Source of the DNA: Bernardetiaceae bacterium
GTDB taxonomy: Bacteria; Bacteroidota; Bacteroidia; Cytophagales; Bernardetiaceae
DNA: 10,127 nt
Assembly: GCA_036822015.1 (NCBI GenBank)
Contig: DAISIL010000002.1
Location: 1,141-11,267 of the forward strand
Reading direction: 5' to 3'
The position numbers and the translations under genes are program-made. This document shows positions 3,180 to 8,250 of the stretch, in pieces (within the stretch, counting starts at the first letter, position 1; each line of letters begins with the position of its first letter). The notes under the pieces are model-generated. The model was not told the DNA's origin. It saw only the letters and a program-made list of their open reading frames with translations, and made no database searches.

Positions 3180-4286
3180 ATGCCCGTTAAGCCACCCGAT
3201 CAAGTAAACTGGGATTTTATTGTAGAAACGATCCGTACCGAGCGTTGTGTGTTGATGCTAGGCCCTGAGGTGGCGCGTAATGCCGAGGGCTTATCGCTTT
3301 ATCAGTCGCTCCTGGAAAGCCTCGACCTAAGCAACCAGGCAAAGGTACGTTATTACAACGACGATGAGTTTTTTTTCTTTCGCGACCCTTTGGCCAAAAC
3401 GAGGGCCGTTTTTGATATTCAGCAGTTTTATGCTCGGCATAGTCCCTCGCCGCTTTTTGAGCAAATTCTCCAAATTCCTTTCCATCTGTGTATCTCTGTT
3501 TCGCCGGACTTGATGCTGCGTCAGTCTTTTGAGCAGTACAACTTGCCCCATCGCTTCGACTACTACCGCAAGTACGAGAACCCCCAAGCGATCGAACGTC
3601 CTACGCAAGATTATCCCCTGATCTACAATCTCTTTGGTGCTATTGAGGATGATGAATCGCTGATCTTTACCCACGAAGACCTCTTCGAGTTTTTGTTCGC
3701 CATCCTGGGGGATCGGAAGCTACCACGCGGGCTGGAGAGCCAACTCCAAAGTGCCAAAAACTTTATTTTTTTGGGCTTTAAGTTCGATAAATGGTACGTT
3801 AAGTTGCTCTTGCGTTTGTTGAGTTTGCATACGGGAAACTTCTTGCGCTACGCTTCTTATAGCCAGGATTCGGTCGAGACGCTCAACTTTTGTATGGATC
3901 ACTTTCGGATTGATTTCATTGACCTAAGCATGGATGATTTTGTTCAGACCCTCTACGACCGCTGTCAGGAACGCGGGATGCTCCGCCCACTCTCGACGAG
4001 CGATACCGTACAAACGCCCTGGGAAATCATCCAGGGATACATCCGAAAAGACGAAGTGAAGGCGGCTTTGCTCAAAATCGAAAGCTACCTAGCTCCCCTG
4101 CCCCAGGAGGAGGAACTCCTCACGACGCTCACCCTGCTGATGAGCCGCTACAACCGCCTCCAGCGAAAGATCACCAATGGGGTCATCGACGAGGACGAAT
4201 CCGAACGCCAACTCAACCGCATCAAACAAGATGTCCTTAGCCTCGGGGAAGCCCTCCAGGAAATACTTGAAGAACAGCAGCTATAG
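3180..4286 (+). CDS. Divergent, probably catalytically inactive SIR2-like (ThsA-type SIR2_2 fold) domain protein with a C-terminal helical module that resembles an effector-associated coupling domain
   Basis: 368 aa with an ATG at 3180. Four blocks align with ThsA-type SIR2_2 landmarks. CVLMLGPEVARNAEGLSLYQSLL aligns with IFAGAGLSMS...WAKLL. FHLCISVSPDLMLRQSFE aligns with HTYWTTNYDRLIEKALE. LIYNLFGAIEDDESLIFTHEDLFEF aligns with VVYKMHGDVEHPSEAVLIKDDYEKY. KNFIFLGFKFDKWYVKLLLRLL aligns with KTFLFVGFSFTDPNLDYILSRV. The catalytic Asn and His positions read P and F. Residues about 280-368 (IQGYIRKDEVKAALLKIESYL...LLMSRYNRLQRKITNGVIDEDESERQLNRIKQDVLSLGEALQEIL) form a helical module. Confidence 0.7.
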   Translation: MPVKPPDQVNWDFIVETIRTERCVLMLGPEVARNAEGLSLYQSLLESLDLSNQAKVRYYNDDEFFFFRDPLAKTRAVFDIQQFYARHSPSPLFEQILQIPFHLCISVSPDLMLRQSFEQYNLPHRFDYYRKYENPQAIERPTQDYPLIYNLFGAIEDDESLIFTHEDLFEFLFAILGDRKLPRGLESQLQSAKNFIFLGFKFDKWYVKLLLRLLSLHTGNFLRYASYSQDSVETLNFCMDHFRIDFIDLSMDDFVQTLYDRCQERGMLRPLSTSDTVQTPWEIIQGYIRKDEVKAALLKIESYLAPLPQEEELLTTLTLLMSRYNRLQRKITNGVIDEDESERQLNRIKQDVLSLGEALQEILEEQQL

Positions 4287-4291
4287 CCACC

Positions 4292-4666
4292 ATGGAAAGC
4301 ACCTTGCATTTGGCAGATAACCTGCGTTGGCTGCGCCAGGAACACGACCTAACCCAGGATCAGCTGGCCCAGATACTCGACCTCAAGCGCAACACCATCA
4401 CGGCTTATGAGAGCCAAAGAAGCCTACCGCCCCTGCCCATCTTGATTCGTTTGGCGGGATACTTTCAGGTGAGCATCGACCATCTCTTATTCTGGGACTA
4501 CAAAGCCGATGCCCCCATAGATGATACACCTGCCGCTTCCGAACGCGAAACCTTGCGCCAGCACTACGAAGCCTTACAGATCGCGTACCTACGTCAGGAG
4601 ATTCACTGCCGCCAGGAGATCATACGCCTCAAAGAAGAACTCCAACAACTCAAGGGCGATCTTTGA
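4292..4666 (+). CDS. XRE-family helix-turn-helix transcriptional regulator with C-terminal coiled-coil
   Basis: 124 aa. LRWLRQEHDLTQDQLAQILDLKRNTITAYESQRSLPPLPILIRLAGYFQVSIDHLLF is a canonical HTH_3 (Cro/C1-type) domain. The C-terminal about 50 aa (ERETLRQHYEALQIAYLRQEIHCRQEIIRLKEELQQLKGDL) is heptad-like. The start lies 5 nt after the stop of the 3180..4286 gene, which implies co-transcription. Confidence 0.8.
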   Translation: MESTLHLADNLRWLRQEHDLTQDQLAQILDLKRNTITAYESQRSLPPLPILIRLAGYFQVSIDHLLFWDYKADAPIDDTPAASERETLRQHYEALQIAYLRQEIHCRQEIIRLKEELQQLKGDL

Positions 4667-4862
4667 GCGGGCAGGTATTGACCCCAATCAGGGTGTATAG
4701 CCCACAAAAGCGAACCGTCGCCGTGGCGGCCAGGGCAATGCCCCCAACCAAGACAACCCAGCCTAGGGTTCCGGCAACGACTCCACTGGCGTACAAGACC
4801 ACCAAGATAAGGGCTACGGCGTAGCGGATCAGTCGGTCTATTTTTCCTACGTTTGTTTGCAT
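4650..4862 (-). CDS. DUF2892 / YgaP-like small inner-membrane protein
   Basis: 70 aa. The N-terminal NVGKIDRLIRYAVAL matches the DUF2892 GxxDRxxR signature. It has two TM helices and a C-terminal Cys-Pro (NTCPL). Its 3' end overlaps the convergent HTH gene by 17 nt. Confidence 0.75.
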   Translation of the reverse strand: MQTNVGKIDRLIRYAVALILVVLYASGVVAGTLGWVVLVGGIALAATATVRFCGLYTLIGVNTCPLKDRP

Positions 4863-4897
4863 GGCATGATTGTTTCAGAAATGGTTTAAGCGAAAGT

Positions 4898-4947
4898 ACA
4901 AAAAAAATATGACTTACCCCAAAGACAGTCTGTAGGCCGCTTTGGCG
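4898..4947 (-). terminator. Weak candidate intrinsic terminator downstream of the site-2 protease gene
   Basis: On the minus strand, a ccaaag/ctttgg 6-bp stem (4919-4924 pairing with 4940-4945; alternatively ccgc/gcgg at 4937-4947) is followed about 11 nt later by a T8 run (plus-strand A8 at 4900-4907). The stem-to-T-tract spacing is longer than canonical. Confidence 0.2.
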
Positions 4948-4953
4948 GTTTGG

Positions 4954-6108
4954 TTATTCCACCATGAGCAGCGGCTGGGGCGTAAAGCAAAGCACAAAGA
5001 CTACCAGAGCCAGCACACCCAACGCCTTCCTGATCGGGCTAAGCGGAACAGACTCCTCTGCCCCCGGATGAGAGATACCCACCACACGCCCCAGCAAAAA
5101 ACCAAACAACAGCCAGGCATGGTAGCCCTCAATGCCTGGAAACAAAGCCGCAATACCCCATTGGCACAAAACCAGCACCAGAGCCACCACCAAAGCCGCC
5201 TGCCAGTGCCGAAACTCACGCGCCCATACCCAGTACAGATAGCCCACATACAAGATAAAGCCCGTCGGAGATTCCCATACATCGGATACCGAAAACAGCC
5301 CCAATCCCGCATAGCCCAAAAAGACAAAGAAAAACAGCCGTGCAATGCGCTGATGCCAGCGGTAGCCCACCAGCCCATAGAGGACGTGTCCGCCGTCGAG
5401 TTGGCCGATGGGCAGTAGGTTGAGGGCCGTAAAAAACAAAGCCAGATAACCGGCCAGCAAATACGGGTAGTGCATGATCTCGAAATCATTGGGGAGCAAT
5501 GCCGGATCTGCGACCCAATATTTGAACGCCTCAAAAAGCAGATTTGTGCCCAGCCGAACGCCACCCTCGGGGGCATCCTGATACACGTGATCGGCATAAG
5601 CCAGACCATACTGGGCATACTCGGGATGAATCTCGAAGATATGCTCGGCGGGCGGCAAAAAAGTAAATCCGTACCACAACACACCCAATGCTACCACAAA
5701 GCCCGCTAGTGGCCCCGCAATCCCGACATCAAAATACACCTTCCGAGACCATATCCGGCTCCTGATACGGATAAACGCGCCCATTGTCCCGATGGAAGGC
5801 GCACCCGCAAAAAGTGGTAAAAAGCCCAACCAAAGCGGAATGTAGTACGGCAAGCTGACCCGCAGCCGGTGGTATTGCGCCACAAAGTAATGCCCAAACT
5901 CATGTACGGTCAGGATGCCCAAAAAAGGGATCGAGTAATGTAGCCCATCCCAAAAGTGCGCCCACGTCAGGGCAGGTGAAACCCAAAAAAAAGGCCGCCC
6001 CCATATCCACTCTGCCCCCGCAAATGTCGTAGCAATGAAGGTCAGGAGGAAGAGCAGGGGATGCAAAAGCAAGCGAAGCAAGGGGCGCATAGGGGGCGAT
6101 GTTTTCAC
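4954..6108 (-). CDS. Site-2 protease family (M50) intramembrane zinc metalloprotease
   Basis: The HEFGH (HExxH) motif sits in a TM helix, with NLLPIGQLDGGHV (the LDG motif) downstream and multiple TM segments. A GTG at 6108-6106 overlaps the upstream methyltransferase stop as GTGA, an arrangement typical of translational coupling. An in-frame ATG at 6090-6088 (MRPLLRLLL...) is the alternative start. Confidence 0.85.
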   Translation of the reverse strand: MKTSPPMRPLLRLLLHPLLFLLTFIATTFAGAEWIWGRPFFWVSPALTWAHFWDGLHYSIPFLGILTVHEFGHYFVAQYHRLRVSLPYYIPLWLGFLPLFAGAPSIGTMGAFIRIRSRIWSRKVYFDVGIAGPLAGFVVALGVLWYGFTFLPPAEHIFEIHPEYAQYGLAYADHVYQDAPEGGVRLGTNLLFEAFKYWVADPALLPNDFEIMHYPYLLAGYLALFFTALNLLPIGQLDGGHVLYGLVGYRWHQRIARLFFFVFLGYAGLGLFSVSDVWESPTGFILYVGYLYWVWAREFRHWQAALVVALVLVLCQWGIAALFPGIEGYHAWLLFGFLLGRVVGISHPGAEESVPLSPIRKALGVLALVVFVLCFTPQPLLMVE

Positions 6109-6761
6109 TTGGTCAGGATGTACATCTCCCGCTCGAGTCCCGTAGCAGAGCTATAAGGGCGTTGCTCGAGGGAGGAGAAGCCGGCCGCCTCAGACATCCG
6201 AGCCATATCTTCGGGATAGGGCATATAGCCCTCCAGGGTTCCCCACTCGGTTTCGACGCGGATGTATTTTCGGTCTATCTTTTTGCCGACGTATTTGATT
6301 TGATCGCGGGGTGCGTCGATGTATGCCTTGCCTTGTGGGTGGAGTTGGGAGTAGATGCGATGGAGGCAAAGCATTTGATCCTCGGGAGTTTGTTCGAGTA
6401 TGCCTGACCAGAGCCACAAGACAGCATCGACCGCTGTGGGCAGTTGTAGGTCTCGGATGTCTTGTTGGATCGGGCTTACGGGGGGGTGAGTAGTTTGTTC
6501 TTCGATCAGTTGCAATAGATGGGGGATACGATCGACGGCAAATATTTCTCCGGCGTATCCCATCTCGAGCAGCCCCAGGACACAACGCCCATAGCCTGCC
6601 CCTAGCTCGGCGATGCTTTGGGTGTCCACCAAATCAGGGAAGATCACTTGCAGGTCAGGGAGGGTATCAAAGCCCGTCAGTTGTGCCAGTTCATGGAACT
6701 TTTGGAGTTCCATTTTGCGGTAAAAGTCAAGGTTATCTGCTCGGATGGTGGAATGCGTCAT
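6105..6761 (-). CDS. Class I SAM-dependent methyltransferase
   Basis: The Rossmann motif I IAELGAGYGRCV is followed by an acidic motif II (IFAVD). The ATG at 6761-6759 is preferred because the TTG at 6785 used by the ORF track would overlap the upstream gene's stop at 6772-6774. The stop is TGA at 6107-6105. Confidence 0.8.
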   Translation of the reverse strand: MTHSTIRADNLDFYRKMELQKFHELAQLTGFDTLPDLQVIFPDLVDTQSIAELGAGYGRCVLGLLEMGYAGEIFAVDRIPHLLQLIEEQTTHPPVSPIQQDIRDLQLPTAVDAVLWLWSGILEQTPEDQMLCLHRIYSQLHPQGKAYIDAPRDQIKYVGKKIDRKYIRVETEWGTLEGYMPYPEDMARMSEAAGFSSLEQRPYSSATGLEREMYILTK

Positions 6762-6771
6762 GAAAGCAAAA

Positions 6772-7446
6772 TTACAAATTTTCAAAGAGGCGGCGTTTGA
6801 GCTGCTGAAATTCTTCTTCGGAGATTGTCCCTGCCTGGCGGAGTTCCATCAGTTCGTTGAGGCGATCCAGGGGGTCTTTGGCGGCGGTGGGTTGTACTTC
6901 TACCTCTACTTCGTCGGCCTCAGAAAACTCATCCTGGGCAGCCTTGCCCCGCTTGACAAACTCGTCCTGCATCTGTCGGGCAAACTGCTTGCCCTTCTCA
7001 AACTCCTGCTGATAAAAGCTCTTGACGGCTTCGGCATCGAAGTCCTCCAAAGTGCCGCCTTTCTCAAAATGCGTTACAAAAACACGCCCCGTCGCGTAGG
7101 TAGAAGCCCCCGAAAGGATCGCCATACTGACCCCGCCCACGACCGCACCCACGCCCGGAATCATCTTGATTGCCTGTGATCCCAACTTAGGCAACGCACT
7201 GCCAGCCAGTGTATTGAGCCAGGATTCTAGGTTGCGACGACGAAAATCAACGCCATAGATTTTACACAACTCATGTACCATATCTATTTGGATCGCCGTA
7301 ACGGCTACCATATCGGCCAGTGGGATCGGAATCAAGCCGGCCCCCAACGACCAACCTACCGATCGCTCCACGATACGCTCTGCCCGCTCGTTATCGGTAT
7401 CCATGCCCATTTTTTCCTTGAACTTATAGAAGAGATAATCTAACAT
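6772..7446 (-). CDS. DUF697-like domain protein with acidic linker and C-terminal SHOCT domain
   Basis: 224 aa. GWSLGAGLIPIPLADMVAVTAIQIDMVHELCKIYGVDF resembles the DUF697 (YcjF-like) core. The C-terminal DPLDRLNELMELRQAGTISEEEFQQLKRRL is a SHOCT (short C-terminal) motif. Between them is an acidic linker, EFSEADEVEVEV. It is the first gene of the minus-strand three-gene operon. Confidence 0.6.
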   Translation of the reverse strand: MLDYLFYKFKEKMGMDTDNERAERIVERSVGWSLGAGLIPIPLADMVAVTAIQIDMVHELCKIYGVDFRRRNLESWLNTLAGSALPKLGSQAIKMIPGVGAVVGGVSMAILSGASTYATGRVFVTHFEKGGTLEDFDAEAVKSFYQQEFEKGKQFARQMQDEFVKRGKAAQDEFSEADEVEVEVQPTAAKDPLDRLNELMELRQAGTISEEEFQQLKRRLFENL

Positions 7447-7608
7447 TGTCTTTATACAGATGATTCATAATGGTAACGGATCAAGGCAAATAATGGATTA
7501 GAAAAAAGATATAAAACCCGAAAAAGTTTTTTGACTGCCGTATTTTTTGTATCTTTCCCAATCCCTTGACCGTAATCCATTGTATTCACCGCCTAGCCCT
7601 TTGCGTTT
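7447..7608. promoter_or_regulatory. AT-rich divergent promoter region containing a perfect 9-bp inverted repeat (candidate operator)
   Basis: aatggatta at 7492-7500 and taatccatt at 7573-7581 are exact reverse complements, 72 nt apart. Two ttgac elements lie at 7541-7545 and 7566-7570. The repeats flank the region where promoters for both divergent transcription units must sit. Confidence 0.3.
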
Positions 7609-8250
7609 ATGTCCGCCAAAAAAGATACCCAGCCTGTGCGTCGTCGGCCGCTCAATGCCCTCCAACACATCGAAAAACAACATCCCTATGTGGTGATGCT
7701 CTACGTGGGCATGATTGGCATTTCAGCCATGTTTTTGTTTTTGTTATTTTCATTTCGTTTTTATGAAATTCAGGAGGAGGTCTTGGCGCGGTTTCGCTTT
7801 CCGACGGGCTTTGTCATCAGCACGTGTTTGCTCCTGATGAGCAGCCTAACGATTCATCAAGCGAAGTTGTCGTTTTATGAAGATGATTTTTTGCAGATGC
7901 GGCGTTATCTCCTGATTACTTTGGGCTTGGGTATTGGTTTTTCGGTTTGTCAAGTGGTGGGTTGGTATGAGTTGCAGGCCGCTGGGCTGGCTTGGGCAAG
8001 CCAAAACTCTACAACGTATCTCTATTTGGTCTCGGGGCTACACGTCTTGCACCTCCTGGGAGGCTTGGCTTTTGTGGGGGTGCAGGCATATAGCATCCAT
8101 CAAAAGTGCCACGATCCGGTAAAAGTGTTGATTGCCGTAACCAACCCTCACGAAAAAATGAAGCTAACCTTGATGACGCTCTACTGGCACTTCATGGATG
8201 GGCTTTGGGTGGTACTGTTTTTGTATTTCGTGATGGCGTTTTTGTTTTAA
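7609..8250 (+). CDS. Cytochrome c oxidase subunit III family membrane protein (stand-alone, COX3-like)
   Basis: 213 aa with about 5 TM helices. The C-terminal LTLMTLYWHFMDGLWVVLFLYFV matches the hallmark YWHFVDVVW motif of heme-copper oxidase subunit III. No subunit I or II gene is in the window. Confidence 0.6.
   Translation: MSAKKDTQPVRRRPLNALQHIEKQHPYVVMLYVGMIGISAMFLFLLFSFRFYEIQEEVLARFRFPTGFVISTCLLLMSSLTIHQAKLSFYEDDFLQMRRYLLITLGLGIGFSVCQVVGWYELQAAGLAWASQNSTTYLYLVSGLHVLHLLGGLAFVGVQAYSIHQKCHDPVKVLIAVTNPHEKMKLTLMTLYWHFMDGLWVVLFLYFVMAFLF

Follow-up and report, generated by a model that had tools for sequence, protein, structure and literature searches.

What does a SIR2-like domain do in a bacterial immune locus when the residues of canonical sirtuin chemistry are missing from it? 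The question is raised by a window of 10,127 nucleotides (nt) from a Bernardetiaceae bacterium (contig DAISIL010000002.1 of assembly GCA_036822015.1, positions 1,141 to 11,267 of the forward strand), in which a complete open reading frame (ORF) at window positions 3180-4286 (+) encodes a protein of 368 amino acids (aa) that joins a SIR2-like domain to EAD11, an all-helical effector-associated adaptor domain. Annotation and models usually treat defence-type SIR2 domains as executioners that deplete nicotinamide adenine dinucleotide (NAD+). The protein described here belongs to a large clade that lacks the catalytic His and whose genes are, in nearly all assessable loci, paired with a gene for an nSTAND1 NTPase, and the probable role of the clade is that of an adaptor or regulator, not of a classical NAD-destroying enzyme. 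The ORF product matches, without a difference, NCBI MGF1533698.1, 'MAG: SIR2 family protein [Bernardetiaceae bacterium]' (MAG, metagenome-assembled genome). All features of the gene are given in window coordinates on the + strand: the SIR2-fold domain spans aa 8-268 (3201..3983) and EAD11 spans aa 284-357 (4029..4250; PF19964, E 4e-13), where the AlphaFold2 (AF2) model is helical. Pfam recognises SIR2_2 (PF13289) over aa 110-220, with 38.2 bits against a gathering cut-off of 24.5 (E 1.9e-9), and no NTPase domain in the 368-aa protein. No system was assigned to the ORF product by PADLOC or NCBIfam; there were weak partial matches to LmuA and ThsA, the PADLOC ThsA model covering just aa 146-211 (E 0.038), and no NCBIfam match.

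The protein is a genuine SIR2 fold with the Rossmann-like three-dimensional structure of SIR2 domains. Fold comparison gave the highest score to SeThsA of Streptococcus equi (7uxt, 20.0), followed by KomC (9v0g, 19.4; 8zsf, 18.5), Avs5 (9nc9, 16.9), FAM118B (15.4) and PsSIR2 (15.3), with classical sirtuins at 11-14.6 and SAMD9 at 11.3, making ThsA the closest fold. The family profile of the clade was aligned by hhalign with a ThsA-type profile, which was built from short fragments found with a ThsA-fragment query and spans the GAGLS loop, at a probability of 96.5% (E 7e-10) over 183 aligned columns. The initial annotation, which had been made from the sequence of the window, allowed that the domain might not be of SIR2 fold at all; because the fold comparison ranks ThsA, KomC and Avs5 on top, this doubt falls away, and the PF13289 and hhalign matches agree with the SIR2-type assignment.

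Four sequence blocks correspond to the canonical motifs of the fold. LGPE (aa 27-30; 3258..3269) is a remodelled Gly-rich loop that replaces GAGxS; SVSPD (aa 106-110; 3495..3509) is the counterpart of TTNYD, in which Ser108 takes the place of the catalytic Asn, Pro109 takes that of the Tyr, and Asp110 is retained; YNLFG (aa 149-153; 3624..3638) is the counterpart of YKLHG, with Phe152 at the catalytic His position; and FLGFKFDKWY (aa 197-206; 3768..3797) is the counterpart of FLGFSFED, with the variable position 201 replacing Ser. The register was taken from three independent alignments: phmmer to SeThsA 7uxt, the family profile against KomC, and hhalign against the ThsA-type profile. In the first, YNLFG lies opposite YKLHG at marginal similarity (E 0.013), and in the second iYNLfG lies opposite IIKFHG of KomC, for which the deposited mutant is KomC(H146N). 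SVSPD and TTNYD align one to one in all three, pairing Asn with Ser108, Tyr with Pro109 and Asp with Asp110. In the hhalign register L27-G28-P29 stands opposite G-A-G, leaving a single Gly, and E/D30 follows the Gly loop, whereas a hand-made alternative register puts E/D30 at the second Gly. Both the hhalign and the clade alignments show the Ser of GFSF to be lost, position 201 being variable. The secondary structure seen in the model agrees with this register, with a strand at 103-106, a loop from V107 to D110, a helix from 112, and a strand at 147-150 that is followed by L-F-G.

The four blocks lie in the ORF where the initial annotation had placed them, and its reading of the Gly-rich loop as reduced to one Gly agrees with hhalign, as does its reading of His as Phe with all three alignments. 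Its substitution of Asn by Pro is off by one residue, Pro109 lying opposite Tyr; the claim that both catalytic residues are lost survives with Ser108 named in place of Pro. A register shift that restores an Asn/His pair, which had been put forward as the finding that would overturn this claim, was searched for and none was found. The only His residues nearby are H102, which faces Ser131 of ThsA from the N-terminal end of a strand, and H165, which faces an Arg; neither occupies a catalytic position. The sole conserved candidate for a substitute is Asn150, which precedes the His position by two residues. By sequence, the His, the Asn and the GAGxS loop of a competent SIR2 NADase or deacylase are all three absent.

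The absence is not peculiar to this protein. A word-indexed search returned 82 relatives, an exhaustive profile search returned 1969 50%-identity clusters at E<=1e-10, of which 946, mostly from Bacteroidota, reached E<=1e-30, and a scan of GTDB species genomes returned 190 loci, mostly from Saprospiraceae, Chitinophagales and Cytophagales, with a minority from Brocadia, Gemmatimonadota, Pyrinomonadaceae and Rhodothermales. Residues were tallied over 282 distinct domain sequences aligned to a hidden Markov model (HMM) of the clade. Position 152, the His site, is His in none of the 282 sequences; it is F in 186, L in 49, C in 16, M in 9, V, T and A in 6 each, I in 3 and Y in 1. Position 108, the Asn site, is S in 125 (44%), N in 73 (26%), T in 70 (25%) and another residue in 14, S, T and N together accounting for 268 (95%) and keeping the site small and polar. 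Of the 16 sequences with Cys at 152 (nt 3633-3635), 14 have Asn at 108 (nt 3501-3503; Fisher p 2e-7, without correction for phylogeny), and this near-exclusive pairing suggests that sites 108 and 152 are coupled and may still act together.

Around these two sites the motif blocks are tightly conserved. Position 28 is G in 276 of the 282 sequences and in all but one of the 277 ungapped rows; positions 29 and 109 are P in 264 and 265; position 110 is D in 268; position 146 is P in 281; positions 149 and 150 are Y in 271 and N in 269; and positions 153 and 199 are G in all 282. Positions 160 and 167 are S in 261 and D in 257, position 203 is D or E in 255, and positions 204, 205 and 206 are K in 239, W in 278 and Y in 271. 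The four SIR2 motif blocks make up 63 of the 261 positions and hold 27 of the 40 best-conserved columns. The resulting clade signature, LGP(E/D), S-x-(S/T/N)-P-D, P-L-I-Y-N-L-(F/L)-G and F-L-G-F-x-F-(D/E)-K-W-Y, is present in the ORF product in all four parts; the product is among the best scores against the clade HMM (E 3e-116) and is 74% identical to P0002, the SIR2-like protein of locus L004. With His missing from all 282 relatives, the residue loss is a clade trait and no chance pattern; the pocket is remodelled yet selected, not decayed. The formula in the initial annotation of a conserved scaffold from which the chemistry has gone is right in that the fold is kept and the canonical pair is absent, and too simple in that no part of the domain is better conserved than the pocket loops. 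Nor are the substitutions the oddity of a single protein, for they mark a clade that comprises about a thousand clusters at 50% identity. The two top-scoring representatives, P0083 (1158 aa) and P0084 (645 aa), are far longer than the others and match the profile in two stretches each, perhaps as tandem duplicates of the SIR2-like-EAD11 unit or as fusions of it that might include the NTPase.

The gene neighbourhood of the clade is as regular as its signature. All ORFs of 80 genome loci, which contain 81 SIR2-like genes, were scanned with small HMMs built for the SIR2-like domain, for EAD11 and for nSTAND1; 5 of the SIR2-like genes lie near contig ends and were left out, leaving 76 assessable. 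An nSTAND1 NTPase gene lies immediately downstream in 72 of the 76, with a median gap of 9 nt and a 4-nt overlap in 17 pairs. In L062 the nSTAND1 gene is upstream instead, and in three loci (L049, L058 and L066; ~4%) no nSTAND1 was detected within ~10 kb. Among the loci found by exact-protein look-up, nSTAND1 is directly downstream in L003-L006 and L088; in L007 it lies ~3.2 kb downstream, with other genes between. The nSTAND1 partners vary at their C-terminus, which carries TPR and WD40 repeats, LRR or an FGE-sulfatase domain, and the HMM scan detected no EAD11 in them. Because the partners lack a detectable EAD11, the SIR2-like domain is the likely contact of nSTAND1, which would leave EAD11 free to recruit.

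What is attached to the SIR2-like domain varies as well. In most members this slot is filled by EAD11; in L007 it holds EAD7, beside a gene for an EAD11-EAD7 adaptor; in others TIR_2 is fused to the SIR2-like protein at the C-terminus (P0041 and others) or the N-terminus (L026 and L035); and in some members the slot is a short coiled coil or empty. The neighbouring genes include EAD11-TIR (L025, L076, L081 and L084), CHAT-EAD11 (L067), EAD11-SH3 (L077) and EAD11 with an unknown domain (L003, L046 and L078); in all, 11 relatives have a cognate EAD11 gene of this sort adjacent. The Glu of the SxxCxxE motif is the catalytic residue of TIR domains, and the fused TIR domains keep this motif in 41 of 47 proteins. 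The SIR2-like-TIR fusions stand in a Rosetta-stone relation to the gene pairs in which SIR2-like-EAD11 occurs with EAD11-TIR.

Several loci carry further features of the same kind. On a Candidatus Brocadia contig (L006, 10069-14582), the nSTAND1 partner of a SIR2-like-TIR protein bears a C-terminal FGE-sulfatase domain and is followed by HRDC, bAvd and reverse transcriptase genes, constituting a diversity-generating retroelement (DGR), with HicAB and PIN toxin-antitoxin genes flanking; the retroelement presumably mutates the nSTAND1 sensor. In L007 (7347-7934), a 195-aa protein consisting of EAD11 and EAD7 only is encoded beside the SIR2-like-EAD7 gene and downstream of a phage-type integrase, and it appears to be a pure adaptor-to-adaptor bridge joining two EAD networks. 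Several genomes hold paralogous SIR2-like/nSTAND1 pairs, with three loci each in two MAGs (L030/L033/L082 and L071/L085/L086), and L045 holds tandem pairs (4154-7735 and 9410-13818), one with SIR2-like-TIR and one with TIR-SIR2-like. Such multiple paralogous pairs are consistent with diversifying immune gene families.

This context favours a non-effector role for the SIR2-like domain, because what stays constant beside nSTAND1 is this domain, whereas the effectors, TIR and CHAT, are fused to it or recruitable through EAD11. The reading preferred here, by a modest balance of probability, is that the domain is an assembly or adaptor module linking nSTAND1 to TIR or caspase effectors and not itself an NAD-depleting effector. 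That it forms the core transducer is argued from three observations: the domain is constant and the output variable, the nSTAND1 partners are without EAD11, and the Rosetta-stone relation links the fused and the EAD11-coupled forms. In the mechanism proposed, the SIR2-like domain, whose gene is the fixed upstream operon partner of nSTAND1, would serve as a constant transducer or assembly module, and activation of nSTAND1 would bring SIR2-like domains together in the manner of Avs5, KomC and FAM118B filaments. The C-terminal EAD11 domains, once clustered, would recruit EAD11-TIR or CHAT-EAD11 by homotypic contacts, and a directly fused TIR in other members would bypass EAD11 recruitment. The conserved pocket would most likely bind an NAD-related ligand or a partner surface and would perform no canonical NAD+ hydrolysis. 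Structure descriptions of Avs5, KomC and FAM118B speak of helical assemblies or filaments built by their SIR2 domains, and the Sir2-like domain of SAMD9L, which adjoins a STAND NTPase, has been read as a dimerising scaffold. In this picture the fold, the residues, the pattern across the clade, the linkage of the genes and the domain architectures are observed, whereas the physical coupling to nSTAND1, the recruitment through EAD11 and the lack of catalysis are deduced.

Several observations weigh against an adaptor role. An EAD11-effector gene lies within 10 kb in just ~11 of the 80 loci, and several two-gene loci (L034, L057, L060 and L061) encode SIR2-like proteins of ~290-350 aa that have neither an EAD nor a TIR, so that the SIR2-like domain is the sole visible effector candidate in them. 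The contact between the SIR2-like domain and nSTAND1, likely as it is, is deduced from gene adjacency only. Conservation in the domain peaks at the pocket loops, position 108 is held to S, T or N, and Asp110 and the acidic residue at 203 are kept, all of which would equally be expected of a divergent enzyme. D112 and E202, the counterparts of Asp110 and position 203, are essential in PaAvs5 (PMC12931631).

The main rival, itself somewhat unlikely, is that nSTAND1 activates the domain as an enzyme, be it an NAD(P)+ glycohydrolase or one that transfers ADP-ribosyl groups, which works through a non-canonical site and makes the clade a split-gene analogue of Avs5. Its site would consist of Ser, Thr or Asn108 positioning water, together with Asp110, Asn150 and the acidic residue at 203. 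The first two of these and position 203 are retained in most of the 282 sequences (268, 268 and 255, with Asn itself at 108 in 73), and Asn150 is nearly invariant; the concentration of 27 of the 40 most conserved columns in the motif blocks, the covariation of sites 108 and 152 (Cys152 with Asn108 in 14 of 16) and the two-gene loci without another effector domain point the same way. PaAvs5-1 has NG for HG and still depletes NAD+, with N110, D112 and E202 essential (PMC12931631). Loss of the His alone is therefore no proof of lost NADase activity. What counts against an enzyme is that the His site of the clade holds mainly hydrophobic replacements, which are unable to act as a base or a hydrogen-bond donor, with His at 0 of 282. 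One Gly is left of the GAG loop, with the acidic E/D30 beside it, and the Ser of GxS is variable. In sirtuins, the Gly loop and the GxS Ser both contact NAD. GAGXS and TTNXD are likewise described as NAD-contacting (PMC12931631). A second NADase would also be redundant, given the frequent fusion or EAD11 link to a competent-looking TIR.

An improbable alternative makes the domain a small-molecule sensor, whose pocket would bind, without cleaving, NAD+, ADP-ribose (ADPR) or a TIR-made signal of the cyclic ADPR type and would gate or amplify TIR or caspase effectors. Such a sensor would reverse the order of Thoeris, in which the signal comes from TIR and SIR2 is the executioner. The conservation of the pocket loops despite the loss of the catalytic residues, the systematic association with TIR by fusion or EAD11, and the closeness of the fold to ThsA all speak for it. 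The altered phosphate-binding Gly loop and the lost GxS Ser, on the other hand, oppose the canonical pose of an NAD-like dinucleotide, and many loci have no TIR nearby. 

The adaptor reading has a bolder general form, in which a thousand-cluster SIR2-fold clade without sirtuin chemistry is an obligate non-enzymatic transducer that connects nSTAND1 sensors to death-fold-recruited TIR or caspase effectors, either as a scaffold or as a sensor of NAD metabolites. This proposal is tentative and falls somewhat short of being probable; if true, the clade would give bacteria a counterpart to the way Sir2-like and STAND modules are arranged in SAMD9/9L, and would turn the logic of Thoeris round.

The Bernardetiaceae genome itself departs from the usual arrangement. 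In the 10-kb window, neither the HMM scan nor the ORFs revealed an nSTAND1 gene, a remnant of one or any other NTPase. The slot held by nSTAND1 in relatives is instead occupied by a gene that starts 5 nt past the SIR2-like stop codon and encodes a 124-aa XRE-family helix-turn-helix (HTH) protein with HTH_3 and a C-terminal coiled coil (4292..4666, +; identical to MGF1533699.1). The HTH protein gives weak matches to RstR, CapH and the PADLOC HTH/control-protein models. It shows no similarity to nSTAND1. An HTH gene occupies this slot in 0 of ~85 related loci and the pairing is lineage-specific; the XRE HTH protein may regulate the relocated SIR2-like gene.

An nSTAND1 protein that is probably from the same genome was recovered elsewhere. 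MGF1532757.1, 'ACFCUI_03585 [Bernardetiaceae bacterium]' (P0246/P0364), is 59% identical to the nSTAND1 partner in L004, and its accession belongs to the same series as those of the window proteins MGF1533698.1 and MGF1533699.1. The gene is present in sequencing runs SRR3311151 and SRR3311156, in which the window locus also occurs in exact copy; at the DNA level these metagenome copies do not differ from the window copy. It is from these accessions and samples that the two genes are placed, with probability rather than certainty, in one genome. Around MGF1532757.1 the gene order is rplV-rpsC-nSTAND1-NamZ (L090, 473-2338; L091, 1381-3243; both from the same SRA study as the window copy, L001), and the position of nSTAND1 after rplV-rpsC is an apparent break in the usual order of ribosomal-protein genes. 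In L004 the order is DUF1599-SIR2like-nSTAND1-NamZ, with the 74%-identical SIR2-like gene directly before nSTAND1. The nSTAND1-NamZ junction common to L004 and the MAG of the window argues that the two nSTAND1 genes are orthologous and that a rearrangement parted the SIR2-like/nSTAND1 pair in the window lineage. Since nSTAND1 is on another contig, any function would have to work in trans. A composition indicative of horizontal transfer is not supported, the GC content at third codon positions (GC3) of the SIR2-like gene being 0.62, like that of its neighbours.

That the gene is a decaying orphan, non-functional after the loss of its nSTAND1 partner, is very improbable: the window without nSTAND1, the HTH gene in the slot, the housekeeping neighbours and the rarity of unpaired relatives (just ~4%) would fit it, but the ORF is full length, scores 3e-116 against the clade HMM, keeps every clade-invariant residue and matches its neighbours in GC3, and an intact nSTAND1 orthologue lies on another contig of apparently the same MAG.

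The other genes of the window are housekeeping in character: carboxylesterase, FMN reductase, DUF4249, YgaP-like, M50 peptidase, methyltransferase, DUF697, COX3 and a type IX secretion system (T9SS) cargo protein. Neither a TIR gene nor a second copy of EAD11 was found in the window, nor were tRNA or Rfam elements. Positions 1-466 are AT-rich, with a GC content of 0.37 against ~0.55 elsewhere, and contain no convincing ORF, tRNA or Rfam match.

As a large clade lacks the His and mostly lacks the Asn, automatic calls of 'SIR2 family protein = NADase effector' are unsafe in many Bacteroidota immune loci. The clade also offers a tractable two- or three-gene system, consisting of SIR2-like-EAD11, nSTAND1 and EAD11-TIR or CHAT, for the untested 'EAD principle' of homotypic recruitment, and it opens the question of what role a SIR2 fold has without NAD cleavage, a question that bears on human SAMD9/9L, whose Sir2-like domain is still unexplained. 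No published description of a His-less SIR2 clade obligately paired with nSTAND1 was found, within an incomplete coverage of the literature, and a literature search on EAD11 by name returned unrelated papers only.

Among known systems, ThsA (SeThsA, PDB 7uxt) is closest in fold, but the protein has Ser108 and Phe152 for the Asn and His of ThsA and one Gly for GAG, and where ThsA bears a SLOG or Macro sensor and has ThsB as partner, the clade has an EAD11 C-terminus and an nSTAND1 partner. Avs5 (AVAST type 5; PDB 9nc9 and 9jap; Mol Cell 2026, PMC12931631) combines SIR2 and STAND in one polypeptide, whereas the clade encodes them as separate genes. Avs5 is a proven NADase that keeps GAGXS and TTNXD with an essential Asn and has NG for HG (PMC12931631); the clade, unlike Avs5, has a hydrophobic His position, mostly Ser or Thr for the Asn, an altered Gly loop and an attached EAD11, EAD7 or TIR. 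KomC, the SIR2 NADase of Kongming (PDB 8zsf and 9v0g), has TTNYD and the HG histidine, with no EAD and no STAND partner. The Sir2-like domain of SAMD9 and SAMD9L is eukaryotic, has its NTPase in the same polypeptide and has an AlbA tRNase as effector, and its distant resemblance to the clade is one of logic rather than of demonstrated orthology. A further likeness is to the EAD-coupled NTP-dependent conflict systems described by Kaur, Burroughs, Iyer and Aravind (eLife 2020, PMC7159879, and 2021, PMC8195603), with which the clade has in common EAD11 and nSTAND1, sensors of the FGE-sulfatase, TPR, WD40 and LRR types, TIR or CHAT effectors with the same EAD, and an occasional DGR. In the parts of the PMC7159879 and PMC8195603 tables that were covered, EAD11 occurs on LRR+AP-GTPase+COR proteins and the 'SIR2+EAD11' architecture was not found; nor do the covered parts of these papers describe an obligate SIR2-like/nSTAND1 pair or a degenerate SIR2 site. 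The protein is thus neither a ThsA nor an Avs5, and may belong among the EAD-coupled conflict systems.

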